From the NCBI GenBank assembly GCA_964016885.1, contig OZ024743.1:271808001-271872000 (forward strand): DNA of 64,000 nucleotides, read 5' to 3'. The position numbers were made by a program, and so were the translations under genes. The notes beneath the pieces were generated by a model. The model made no database searches and was not told the DNA's origin. It saw only the letters and a list, made by a program, of their open reading frames with translations. Positions 23,719 to 59,818 of the stretch are shown piece by piece. Within the stretch, counting starts at the first letter, position 1. Each line of letters opens with the position of its first letter. Source of the stretch: Eledone cirrhosa. Its lineage: Eukaryota.

Positions 23719-23885
23719 TATGTAATTTGCCCAGTAATCATGTATCTTAGGAGGATCATTGTTCTGGCTTGGTTTCAGTTCATGGGAAGAAATCTTAGTT
23801 GGTGTGTATTTAGTACAGTTCACATAATCATATTTCATCAATGTAATCTTCAAAATTTCAATTTGGTCTGTCTTAAATATCAATC
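23719..23885 (-). CDS. Multi-avidin gene exon 11: domain A2, part 3, plus linker (GLIFKTDQIEILKITLMKYDYVNCTKYTPTKISSHELKPSQNNDPPKIHDYWANYI)
   Basis: TTCTTCAG acceptor, ATA|GTAAGT donor, 167 nt, phase 1-0; paralog of exon 4. Confidence 0.88.
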
Positions 23886-24129
23886 CTGAAGAAAATGACA
23901 GTAAAAAGTTATAGAAATAACAAAGACAAAAAGGAAAATAAAAATATTTTCACATTAATCCTTTAGCATTTAAACCGGTCATATCCAGCCAGAATTTTCT
24001 CACCTTTTTCTACTTAAACCAGTTGTAACTGACCGCTCATATTGATGTTAGTATATTGAGATTTTGATATTATTCATCTTGAGAACAATATCTTAACATA
24101 TAATTTTCGGCGGAAGCAGGGCAGTGCGT

Positions 24130-24171
24130 GGTTCTGATGAATGCCAACCAGCGTGAAACAGACTGTCAGCC
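24130..24171 (+). ncRNA. Compact type I hammerhead ribozyme motif; related degenerate copy at 25305-25345 (-)
   Basis: GGTT-CTGATGA-ATGC caacca GCGT-GAAA-CA gac TG-TC-AGCC. Confidence 0.7.
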
Positions 24172-24529
24172 TCTCTCCCTTCTTTCGCTGAAAATAAGTA
24201 GGTGACGTAGTCACTACTTTAAAACTGATACAAATGGTCTTCTAAATGTTTTTAATTAAACATACGGTATATGAGTGGCCGGTTATAGCCCTTTTGAAGA
24301 GAAAGTGGTGAGAGAATCCTGGCTAGATATGGCTGATTTAAATGTTAAAGGGTTATGGTATTGTTCTCAAAATAAATAACATTAAAATCTCATAGATTCG
24401 ATATTAAGATAAAGCCTTTACCACAAAAATACAATAGCATATATAGAGTAATGTAAATGCTAAAGGGTTAATCTCAGACAATAATTCTTACTTATGTAAA
24501 ACAGTAAAAAGACAAATACATTATATATA

Positions 24530-25224
24530 CTAGCAGAAAAACCACCCTTCGGGTGGTTTTCTGCTAGCATGTGTAGTGTGTATATTGATATTATACGCAA
24601 GTATATATACATGTAGATATGATACATCAAATAAAATCGTAATTGACAATATAAACAGAAATTGAACGAAGACGTTGTTACACTGTCTTAGGTAATCAGT
24701 AATGGAATCCATGATACATTAAAAAAAGTTTATATTATATATAAACTGCATTAGGAGAAAATTAGTGAAGGAAAATTAGTATGTTTATTTAAGTGATCGC
24801 TACCGGAAGTGTTGACATCACACACTCTCTCTTTCTATATATATATATGGTAGTTGAAGTGGTGGTGGTGGCAACGAGATACCGGAACTGCAACTTTGAA
24901 AAGAAGTCAATTTAAAATTATTTATTTTTACGAAATTATTTTTGTTTACAAAATTTAGTAGATAAATTATGTAATATTCATTCATTATTTATTCAAAGTA
25001 ATCCAACTTATTTTACTAATGAGATAAAAAATAATTGTTTCTACTTTTGGCACAAGGCCAGCAATTACCCAATGCATTACTGGTACTTTATTCTATCGAC
25101 CTCGGAAGGATGAAAGGCAAAGTTAACCTCGGCGAGATTTGAACTCAGATCATACAGGTAATAATGGGATAAAAAATAATAAACTGTACGCAGTCCCGCA
25201 GACCTTCCTTTATTATAATTTAGA
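24530..25224 (-). mobile_element. Probable non-autonomous Helitron; second copy at about 46120-46746
   Basis: Minus strand begins TC..TAATAAAG and ends with hairpin GCAGAAAACCACCC-GAA-GGGTGGTTTTTCTG followed by CTAG|T; two diverged copies. Confidence 0.55.
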
Positions 25225-56394: not shown

Positions 56395-58200
56395 CGAGTG
56401 AAAGTATAAAGAAAAAAAGATGAAATCGAAAATGCAACTGGAGTCTTATTTAAAAAAATATATATATATTTATTTGGTTCCTTTACCGGTTTCGCAGTTC
56501 TTCTGCTTTTCAAAAGTAGAGTTGAGATGGAAGGTCTGTGGTTTTTCTCACATCTGGTTGGTCTCTGAATGTTACTTGTTTTATATGGAAAAAAGTGGCT
56601 CGAAATGCCAGGTTTTTAGAGAAGTAATTTGATTGGTTGGTCAATAACTATAATAAATTTCGCGCCAGTTCGCGTTACAAAGTTCTTCAAACAAGGGGGA
56701 GGGGCACAGGTTGTTTTTTCATATATGAGTGTTTGAATTCCTTTTTACTTTAAAAAAGGGGGCTCACGAAGGCTTTTTTAAAAAAAAAAACGTAATTTGA
56801 TTGGTTATAAATGAAATTATGGCTGTCACGTGAACAAGTTTTCATTAAATTTTCGCGCCCTTATTTGGAAATCTATTCTGTAGCCTTTTTAGAGAATTTT
56901 ATGACAAGCAAAAGATAATGGTCAAGAGAAATGGGATGGGAGAATTGTTCTGGTTCAGTGAATATGGTTATTTCGCTGGGGTGTCAAAATTCAGATTTTC
57001 TATTGAATAAAGAAAGTAAAGATATGTATGTTTATTTGTGTGCTTGTGTGTGTGTGTGTGTGTGTGTGTGTGTGTGTGTGTGTGTGTGTGTGTGTGTGTG
57101 TGTGTGTGTGTGTGTGTGTGTGTGTGTGTGTGTGTGTGTGTGTGTGTTTGAATTTCTTTTTACTTAAAAAAAGAGGCTCACGAAGGCTTTTTTTTAATAA
57201 ACGTAACTTGATTGGTTATAAATGAAATTATGGCTGTCACGTGAACAAGTTTCATTAAATTTTCGCGCCCTTATTTGGAAATCTATTCTGTAGCCTTTTT
57301 AGAGAATGTTATGACAAGCAAAACATAATGGTCAAGAGAAATGGGATGGAACCAGAACAATTCTCCCATCCCATTTCTCTTGACCATTATCTTTTGCTTG
57401 TCATAAAATTCTCTAAAAGGGCTACAGAATAGATTTCCAAATAAGGGCGCGAAAATTTAATGAAACTTGTTCACGTTCGTTTTTAAGTAAAAAGAAATTC
57501 AAACACACACACACAACACACACACACACACACACACACACACACACACACACACACACACACACACACACACACACACACACACACACACAAGCACACA
57601 AATAAACATACATATCTTTACTTTTTTTATTCAATAGAAAATCTGAATTCTGACATCCCAGCGAACTAACCATATTCACTGAACCAGAACAATTCTCCCA
57701 TCCCATTTCTCTTGACCATTATCTTTTGCTTGTCATAAAATTCTCTAAAAAGGCTACAGAATAGATTTCCAAATAAGGGCGCGAAAATTTAATGAAAACT
57801 TGTTCACGTGACAGCCATAATTTCATTTATAACCAATCAAATTACGTTTTTTTTTTAAAAAAGCATTCGTGAGCCCCCTTTTTTTAAAGTAAAAAGAAAT
57901 TCAAACACTCATATATGAAAAAACAACCTGTGCCCCCCCCCTCTTGTTTGAAGAACTTTGTAACGCGAACTGGCGCGAAATTTATTATAATTATTGACCA
58001 AGCAATCAAATTTTTTCCATATAAAACAAATAACATTCAGAGACCAACCAGATGTGAGAAAAACCACAGACCCTCCATCTCAACTCTACTTTTGAAAAGC
58101 AGAAGAACTGCAAAACCGGTAAAGGAACCAAATAAATATATATATATTTTTTAAAATAAGACTCCAATTGCATTTTCGATTTCATCTTTTTTTCTTTATA
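56395..58200. repeat. Large inverted duplication (arms meet near 57350) of a dispersed element also present at about 14110-14950
   Basis: The right half is the reverse complement of the left, including (TG)n/(CA)n tracts; internal direct sub-repeat. Confidence 0.85.
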
Positions 58201-58367
58201 TATATCATCATCATCATCATCGTTTAACGTCGATATATATATATATATATATATATATATATATATATATATATATATATATATATATATATATATATAT
58301 ATATATATATATATGTACATATATATATAAATATATATATATATATATATATAGAGAGAGAGAGAGA

Positions 58368-59015
58368 GATTACAATAATCAAAGTTCAGTTTAAATCATT
58401 TATTTGCTTACAATTGTTTCCTCCAAACCGAGGTTTGGATTCTTCGGAGCAACTATTTAGTGATCTATAATATACTTGACCTCCTTTTCAACACAAGAGA
58501 CATATAAAAACATATGCTTATATTGACCCACAGTGGGATGACATCCATCAAAATGATATAGCATGGCAATTTACATATAAAGGTTAAAGGACAAAAATAA
58601 AAATAAAAATAAAAATAAAAATAAAAATAAAAATAAAAATAAAAATAAAAATAAAAATAAAAATAAAAATAAAAATAAAAATAAAAATAAAAATAAAAAT
58701 AAAAATAAAAATAAAAATAAAAATAAAAATAAAAATAAAAATAAAAATAAAAATAAAAATAAAAATAAAAATAAAAATAAAAATAAAAATAAAAATAAAA
58801 ATATATGTAAATTGCCATGCTATATCATTTTGATGGATGTCATCCCACTGTGGGTCAATATATGCATATGTTTTTATATGTCTCTTGTGTTGAAAAGGAG
58901 GTCAAGTATGTTATAGATCACTAAATAGTTGCTCCGAAGAATCCAAACCTCGGTTTGGAGGAAACAATTGTAAGCAAATAAATGATTTAAACTGAACTTT
59001 GATTATTGTAATCTC
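58368..59015. repeat. Inverted repeat (arms of about 210 bp) around a (TAAAAA)n array
   Basis: 58368-58577 is the reverse complement of 58803-59015; hexamer array at 58594-58800. Confidence 0.9.
58929..58977 (+). ncRNA. Minimal hammerhead motif, CCGAAGA core variant; inverted copy at 58404-58452 (-)
   Basis: TTGCT-CCGAAGA-A-TCCAAAC ctcg GTTTGGA-G-GAAA-CAATTG-TA-AGCAA; palindromic stem III. Confidence 0.7.
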
Positions 59016-59692
59016 TATATAACTGCTCTGTAAAACAACCGATGTTATTACATTGAGCTATTTATCTTACTGGTAATAAGATAGTAATTAATGACTATCT
59101 TTCACTATTTGGGGTTTGTATAAAAAATATATAACCATAACAGGTTTTATTACATACATAACCATAAATAGTATCCTTAATACTAATATATATATATATA
59201 TATATATATATACACACACATATATATATATATATATATATTACCCTTGTCATATATATATATATACATATATATATATATATAATGATGATGATGATGA
59301 TGATATATATGTGTACATATATATACATATATATACATATATATATATATATGTACACATATATATCATCATCATTATCATCATTTTACGTTCACTTTTC
59401 CCTGCTTGCAAGGGTGGGTGCTGGGTGCTTTTTTTCCGTGGCGCCTACACATCCACTTTACAGTGTGGGCTGGGTGCATTTTTGCCGTGGCACCTCCACA
59501 ACCACTTTGCAGTGGAATGATAGGGACCCCAGTCCTATCATCTCATTTCTACAGCTGAGTAAACTAGAGCAATGTGAAATAAAGTGTCTTGCTCAAGGAA
59601 ACAACACATGTACATATATATATATATATATATATGTGTACAATAAAAGACTTCTAAAGTAACTTACATTTTAAATTGACAAAAAGACTTAC

Positions 59693-59818
59693 CTCTGACA
59701 ATATAGTCCCAATCACATGAAATCTTTAATGTAGCAGTCAATGTGTTATTGGTTTGGTTACATGTTAACATTAAACCTTCTTCACTCGACCAACTGCCAG
59801 CAAGTATTCCTCCATCAT
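59693..59818 (-). CDS. Multi-avidin gene exon 2: divergent avidin-like domain A1, part 1 (DDGGILAGSWSSEEGLMLTCNQTNNTLTATLKISCDWDYIVRG)
   Basis: TTATTTCAG acceptor, GAG|GTAAGT donor, 126 nt, phase 1-1; paralogous to the same-length exon 27201-27326. Confidence 0.85.

Follow-up and report, generated by a model that had tools for sequence, protein, structure and literature searches.

A predicted octopod avidin in which biotin-binding barrels alternate with non-binding avidin-like partners

The window analysed here, a stretch of 64,000 nt from the genome of Eledone cirrhosa (GenBank assembly GCA_964016885.1, contig OZ024743.1, positions 271,808,001 to 271,872,000), carries one minus-strand gene that runs from 62744 to at least 7251 and encodes a signal peptide followed by four domains in the order A1-B1-A2-B2. 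The B domains are recognisable avidins that keep the residues which contact biotin, the A domains are avidin-like barrels without them, and the best explanation of the whole, to which we would give a probability of about 0.6, is a secreted octopod avidin made of two A:B pairs, with A derived from the first domain (X) of a two-domain avidin gene, X-Y, also found in this genome, and with at most two biotin sites per chain. The gene would represent a new variant of the avidin family, its alternating barrels resembling those of engineered two-site avidins. Positions are numbered on the whole window, and domain residues are placed on avidin numbering by an anchor-based register made in this analysis.

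A preliminary description of this DNA had placed dead avidin subunits in alternation with live ones between 59818 and 23719, limits that prove to be the start of A1 (59818-46787) and the end of A2 (27326-23719). The motifs it quoted are present where it placed them, on the minus strand, with MRGAITNNN interrupted by an intron; the observation is real and conserved, and its interpretation is supported in part. The genome is 3.0 Gb and the closest protein matches come from octopods. The same four-domain architecture occurs in Octopus bimaculoides, O. sinensis and Argonauta hians, to which the protein modelled from the window is 61%, 61% and 50% identical over its full length, and the protein databases label these orthologs as uncharacterised. 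The predicted protein has 18 N-glycosylation sequons, a calculated isoelectric point of 5.5 and a mass of 57 kDa before glycans. A search of the genome for A returned the window copy only, which is a lower bound, and no extra A or B unit stands beside the gene in the window and 30 kb of flank.

Binding and non-binding barrels

The Pfam family Avidin (PF01382) matches the ortholog P0001 in two stretches with an E value of 2.5e-43, and the B domains of this protein match AVR4, avidin and zebavidin in the PDB; all three window B exons that were scanned match the same family, each under the whole-protein cut-off. With B numbering taken from the PDB avidin alignments, N12, S16, T/S35, W70, S75, F79, W97, W110, N/D118 and the C4-C83 pair are kept in all eight B domains of the four species, and 35 of 116 B columns are invariant. 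Tyrosine 33, which B2 of the window keeps, is replaced by Phe in B1 of three of the four species, a change that the preliminary description passed over, and the two biotin sites may therefore be unequal.

Within the window B1 and B2 are far closer to each other, at a synonymous divergence (dS) of 0.16, than are A1 and A2 (dS 0.64). The DNA of the B stretches compared (42236-42035, 38972-38791 and 29190-29029 against 15818-15615, 15317-15136 and 7402-7242) is 87-91% identical including the intron edges, and B2 of the window groups with B1 domains; gene conversion between B1 and B2 in this lineage is probable from these comparisons.

The A domains are quite different. None of N12, S16, T35, W70, W97, W110 and N118 is kept in any of the eight, and A1 and A2 of the window have S12, L16, T/S70, L97, Y110 and H118 with neither C4 nor C83, as the preliminary description had recognised for N12/S16, W70, W97, N118 and the cysteine pair. 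Its further statement that A has no equivalent of W110 holds for tryptophan, but there is a tyrosine at this position in six of the eight A domains, the two of Argonauta having Asn and His. It was right that the A domains share a cysteine pair of their own, which lies at about position 37 and at 105-107 and is invariant in all eight; by analogy with avidin topology it would sit near the pocket mouth as a putative disulfide. Furthermore the loop between strands 3 and 4, the lid, is three residues long in A1 against 13 in B1 in a model of the full-length protein. An additional unpaired cysteine in A1 (model residue 46, avidin position 20, in the exon 59818-59693) is also found in A1 of Argonauta.

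Avidin positions 12, 16 and 35 presumably correspond to N23, S27 and S45 of streptavidin. Substitution of those three residues (N23A/S27D/S45A) defines Dead streptavidin (PMC4047826). It is very probable, judging from the residues that A has lost, that A does not bind biotin. The domain does not appear to be decaying however: 22 of 101 A columns are invariant, S12, E14, G68, L97 and H118 are the same in all eight, the ratio of non-synonymous to synonymous divergence between A1 and A2 is 0.44, and on this evidence A is under purifying selection.

What is being conserved could be a pocket that has been put to another use. In avidin N118 bonds to D13 (PMC1082904), and as S12, E14 and H118 are invariant in A and would be neighbours in the same way, a new polar site there is possible. 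The A pocket might then bind or hydrolyse another small molecule through these residues, making the protein bispecific, a tentative proposal that draws on the constancy of S12, E14, G68, L97 and H118 across eight divergent domains and on a share of invariant columns in A that may be set beside that in B. Against it, positions 16, 35 and 77 carry large hydrophobic side chains, which together with the putative Cys37 staple could fill and close the pocket, and the role of a buried polar network might be no more than structural. A fuller version, a single-chain bispecific pseudo-tetramer with two biotin sites in B and two Ser12/Glu14/His118 pockets in A, descended from a dual-chain X-Y, would seem unlikely. 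In the preferred reading A is a structural partner of B, which had also been anticipated from the sequence and is taken up below with the assembly of the chain.

Fold and descent of the A domains

The preliminary description left open that A might be an unrelated fold. An AlphaFold model of the isolated O. bimaculoides A1, built on an 11-row alignment of the A columns, has eight strands, with a predicted local distance difference test (pLDDT) score of 71-87 over the strand blocks and a predicted template modelling (pTM) score of 0.57. Every row listed by Foldseek for this model is an avidin or streptavidin (best E 1.9e-4), and in a comparison with 48,161 representative chains ranks 1 to 5 are avidins, at Z 12.4-11.4; the best Z among the Foldseek candidates is 12.8 (4jnj, root-mean-square deviation (rmsd) 2.7, 102 residues aligned). 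The avidins matched in this way are 9-19% identical to A1. In the full-length model A2 also has eight strands, W10, G51 and G81 are invariant in A, and F64 and L93 are common. The fold predicted for A is avidin-like, and fold alone is no proof of descent.

Several results weigh against an avidin origin. Other eight-stranded barrels come close in the fold search, with 1pby at Z 11.2 and rmsd 2.0 and with 6czj and 7n34 at Z 10.6; indeed 1pby, an amine dehydrogenase barrel, and then a designed barrel rank just below the five avidins. Sequence comparison does not help: aligning the A profile with the B profile gives an hhalign probability of 0.6, which is at chance level as scores this high come from 19 of 100 column shuffles, so that although the motifs which the preliminary description aligned between A and B are real, their alignment does not stand as evidence of homology. 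The Pfam Avidin model has no match on the four A exon stretches scanned, a PDB search with the A profile gives no avidin, and when this profile is aligned with X, 70 of 300 shuffles score as high. The register that places G51 and G81 in A was set by this analysis, from anchors and from strand positions in the model.

Wider searches return little beyond the octopods. Against 1.84 billion representatives the A profile retrieves, besides the query itself, two proteins, the ortholog from Argonauta and a repeat protein discarded as spurious; no squid or cuttlefish A domain is among them, which does not show absence. In the ESM Atlas the best score is 0.78, and a cluster of which 16% is Avidin stands at rank 4, a lead only. 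Prokaryote scans intended to deepen the alignment found 0 and 1 loci and were not used. Leaving aside two pairs of close species, the A domains are no more than 35-65% alike among themselves. As sequence alignment is no better than chance, homology of A with avidin has to be argued from structure and introns together.

The intron evidence comes from a second avidin gene on the same contig, found with B2 as the query at a distance of about 31 Mb (240376884-240436216 of the contig, minus strand). It consists of two tandem domains, X and Y, whose six exons all match Pfam Avidin and both of which keep the biotin pocket residues including W110, and it would appear to be a natural dual-chain avidin in which both domains bind biotin; its signal exon and last exon were not found. 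X has phase-1 splits at Gly51 and Gly81, a phase-0 end after its tail and then a 61-nt linker exon of phases 0 to 1 (the best of 162 candidates, at a score of 19.7 against 7.6), whilst Y is split at Gly31 and Gly81, as is B. The A domains repeat the pattern of X: they too have phase-1 introns at G51 and G81 and end in phase 0, and a 0-to-1 linker exon follows, so that four intron boundaries and the linker-exon phases are common to A-B and X-Y. The phase-1 intron inside a glycine codon that the preliminary description had seen in both A and B is indeed common to them (AIGIT[G], AIGIS[G], ISVFV[G], ISIFI[G]).

Since its intron positions and phases are shared with X, A very probably had a live avidin domain as its ancestor, and the view of A as a former avidin subunit gains from this identity of introns with a domain that, by sequence, would still bind biotin. 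That A is instead an unrelated eight-stranded barrel, convergent on streptavidin and fused to avidin domains, is very improbable: it would account for the missing sequence signal and for non-avidin barrels that, in one and the same search, trail the best avidin by no more than about 1.2 Z, but not for the introns and linker exon shared with X, for W10, G51 and G81 or the common F64 and L93, or for avidins leading every fold search.

The history proposed on the preferred reading is that an ancestral X-Y gene was duplicated, the original type persisting elsewhere in the genome, and that in the copy the first domain would have lost its biotin contacts and lid loop to become A, with the second remaining a binder as B. 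The A-B unit would then have doubled internally before the split of Argonauta and Octopus; the four A2 domains form a clade with support of 99/97 across the four species, and the doubling is therefore old.

Assembly, biotin sites and known avidins

Assembly was considered on an AlphaFold model of the full-length O. bimaculoides protein, made from a 17-row alignment, which shows four barrels at pLDDT 69 and pTM 0.49. Model residues 24-277, that is A1 and B1, fit both halves of the engineered scdSav 6s4q over 214 residues at 2.6 A and Z 24.7, and residues 69-227 fit chain residues 5-273 of the dual-chain avidin 2c4i over 135 residues at 3.5 A and Z 8.2. The latter range comprises strands 5-8 of A1 and strands 1-5 of B1, as would be seen if a 1-4 pair were circularly permuted. 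That the halves of 2c4i share the 1-4 face is inferred from the interface table of PMC1082904 together with the I117C bond that links separate chains in PMC3029397. These superpositions are in keeping with the idea that A is a structural partner, as A1 packs on B1 in the modelled chain, and pairing of A with B through the 1-4 face is likely as far as the model goes; each A would then pack on its own B, through this large avidin interface, as an obligate partner.

There are also reasons for caution. The model is of an ortholog, and the best of five models alone was examined (pLDDT 69, the others 48-58), with a pTM of 0.49. AlphaFold may fall back on the interface most common among avidins. Residue sizes in A and B complement each other weakly across the 1-4 face (rho -0.28, p 0.43; values as low come from 276 of 5000 random subsets), and at positions 67 and 78 it is X that resembles B and Y that resembles A. 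Foldseek superposes the full model on scdSav over 392-394 columns at an rmsd of 18-19 A, which we read as B1 and B2 not forming a pair of the scdSav type in the model; the aligned ranges are not printed, and this result does not separate a 1-2 from a 1-3 pair.

On balance the sequences favour a chain with two biotin sites, whatever their geometry. The B1-A2 link, four residues in all four species as against 30 to 35 for the A-B linkers, must on this reasoning decide between assembly in cis, in trans and between chains. One arrangement would be a closed single-chain pseudo-tetramer in which B1 and B2 swap W110 as a 1-2 pair, giving a cis-divalent, high-affinity protein with both sites on one face. 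The retention of W110 in all eight B domains is in keeping with this, the constant short link suggests a fixed contact, and the modelled A:B pairing through the 1-4 face leaves the B domains to meet as a 1-2 or a 1-3 pair. It is nonetheless doubtful: the model has a pTM of 0.49, residues 278-280 fall below pLDDT 50, and by a rough estimate made without coordinates a four-residue link is tight for any join of native termini in an avidin tetramer.

A second arrangement, which we hold to be about as tentative, is that the B pockets are capped in trans by Tyr110 of A or by the aromatic A-B linker, or that the A:B pairs join other chains as dimers or strings, with a moderate affinity that would suit transport or release. 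Six of the eight A domains have Tyr110, strand 8 of A keeps the avidin-like T113/K114/I115, the linkers are rich in Trp, Tyr and Phe, other avidins are known to carry intrinsic peptide ligands (PMC5398887), and A1 of the window has an unpaired Cys46. Argonauta however has Asn and His at 110, and the linkers, below pLDDT 50, vary between species. The preferred reading, of a secreted and glycosylated octopod avidin whose chain is two A:B barrel pairs carrying at most two, probably unequal, biotin sites, is compatible with a likely role in biotin capture, antimicrobial or for storage, as has been proposed for other animal avidins.

Dual-chain, single-chain and defined-divalent avidins have been made by engineers through circular permutation, long linkers or the mixing of dead subunits. 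Mixed live and dead avidins and fused avidins are in this sense engineered proteins (PMC4047826, PMC7411666, PMC3105096, PMC3029397). Engineered divalent streptavidins, like the octopus chain as predicted, combine binding and non-binding barrels in a fixed arrangement (PMC4047826), and the intrachain pairs of 2c4i and 6s4q (PMC3105096, PMC3029397) are those that superpose with the modelled A1:B1. The octopus chain differs in being natural and not circularly permuted; its non-binding barrel, at 9-19% identity to avidins, is also far from the three-residue mutant that is Dead streptavidin.

As members of the avidin/streptavidin family the B domains match PF01382 and keep both the biotin contacts and C4-C83, whereas A shares the eight-stranded barrel and several residues of the fold signature; what sets this gene apart is that four domains with native termini stand in one chain, two of them without pocket residues or sequence signal. 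Sea urchin fibropellins also hold a non-binding avidin-like domain (PMC8033661, PMC10336842), but theirs is terminal and follows EGF repeats, whereas the octopus A alternates with live avidin domains, and a Pfam scan of the ortholog P0001 returned no EGF family. Chicken BBP-I was proposed to be a four-domain pseudotetramer of 67 kDa, to be compared with 57 kDa plus glycans here; all four of its domains were believed to bind, and that study found no such gene in chicken (PMC1082904). Rhizavidin, shwanavidin and hoefavidin are naturally two-sited and have a disulfide at the L3,4 loop (PMC5398887), but these bacterial dimers are homodimers without an equivalent of W110, which the octopus B domains keep, and in octopods the extra cysteine pair is in A.

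Searches of the open full-text literature, which leaves most subscription papers outside, listed no account of either octopus protein and none of a natural chain that alternates live and dead barrels. Both an avidin of two domains and one of four, in which every second barrel is non-binding, appear to have evolved in octopods, with native termini. If so, the latter would offer a scaffold whose valency is already fixed; it would let the change of a binding domain into a structural or re-targeted partner be traced, with the live ancestral type in the same genome; and it would give an actual example of the four-domain architecture that had been suggested for chicken BBP-I.

Exon map and the A1-B1 linker

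Fifteen coding exons were mapped, all on the minus strand: one for the signal, three per domain, and two linker micro-exons. Spliced by their coordinates they give 531 codons with no stop. Exon 1 (62666..62744), with the ATG, the signal peptide and a phase-1 donor, aligns with the N-termini of the orthologs. A1 is encoded by an exon for strands 1-4 (59693..59818, phase-1 end inside Gly51), an exon for strands 5-6 (52570..52638, phase-1 end inside Gly81) and an exon for strands 6-8 and the linker start (46787..46965, phase-0 donor), and micro-exon x1 (44910..44946) follows, 37 nt of phases 0 to 1. B1 matches Pfam Avidin in exon 1 (42090..42176, phase-1 end inside Gly31), and has F33, W70 and F79 in exon 2 (38816..38956, phase-1 end inside Gly81) and W97, W110 and N118 in exon 3 (29038..29163), whose phase-1 donor joins A2.

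The three exons of A2 (27201..27326, 26658..26726 and 23719..23885, the last with a phase-0 donor) are followed by micro-exon x2 (20108..20141), 34 nt of phases 0 to 1 with canonical sites, and those of B2 lie at 15670..15756, at 15161..15301 with Y33, W70 and F79, and at 7251..7376 with W97, W110, N118 and a phase-1 donor. A candidate last exon with a charged tail and a stop (6996..7117) was chosen by eye and is unconfirmed; the C-terminal tail of the orthologs has no match in the window or in 20 kb downstream. Two intronless contigs of 1642 and 1853 nt, from two runs on other organisms and guessed to be RNA, carry A1 exon 3 together with B1 exon 2, which points to one spliced chain in relatives; by arithmetic the spacing of the two exons there needs 34-37 extra nt, and one of these contigs also carries an A2-like piece.

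At both A-B junctions the A exon 3 donor is of phase 0 and the B exon 1 acceptor of phase 1, so each linker needs a 0-to-1 micro-exon. Direct splicing of A exon 3 to B exon 1 was rejected, as the phases differ and a stop follows at residue 171 or 422. Micro-exon x2 was the best of 1042 candidate exons, its own sites having formed part of the scoring matrix. With the micro-exons in place the predicted linkers are 35 residues for A1-B1, 30 for A2-B2 and four for B1-A2, in agreement with the long A-to-B and almost absent B1-to-A2 linkers of the preliminary description, which had however overlooked both micro-exons (44946-44910 and 20141-20108) and the unusual acceptor of the first.

This acceptor, at 44948-44947, is TG and not AG, which counts against a working gene in the window, as does the stop at residue 171 that results from omitting x1. 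The same TG is found with 0 differences in short-read DNA contigs from two runs of one sample, although this sample may be the one that was assembled, and a rare allele would be lost from contigs. A human screen found no case of TG as the sole acceptor (PMC2374985). The window allele may therefore be broken, leaky or rescued at the A1-B1 linker exon.

That the gene of this individual is a broken or leaky allele has a chance a little short of even; this is compatible with the other readings, which would then apply to the orthologs. Set against it, canonical sites stand at every one of the 15 donors and at the remaining 13 acceptors, every exon is open, a second, AG-bearing allele is possible given that contigs drop rare variants, and a canonical 37-nt in-frame exon lies directly upstream of x1. 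This possible substitute (44984..45020, minus strand) has AG and GT and the right phases but a weak acceptor (score -1.3, where the 13 AG acceptors of the gene score 7.6-18.8), and is unproven.

A linker exon without AG thus adjoins an upstream 37-nt AG/GT exon of the same phases, and the paralogous intron has neither site; exon replacement at the A1-B1 linker is possible on the sequence.

Finally, the introns hold some features of their own. Open reading frames at 10734-12197, 33692-36282, 48069-49640 and 50291-52118 look by eye to be pieces of retrotransposon reverse transcriptase or endonuclease. The intron between exons 2 and 3 of A2 has a short duplicated segment (25480-25300 and 24250-24090) with an inner piece inverted between the copies, and elsewhere there are a minisatellite with units of about 35 bp (17365-19350) and a long hexanucleotide run (58570-58820).

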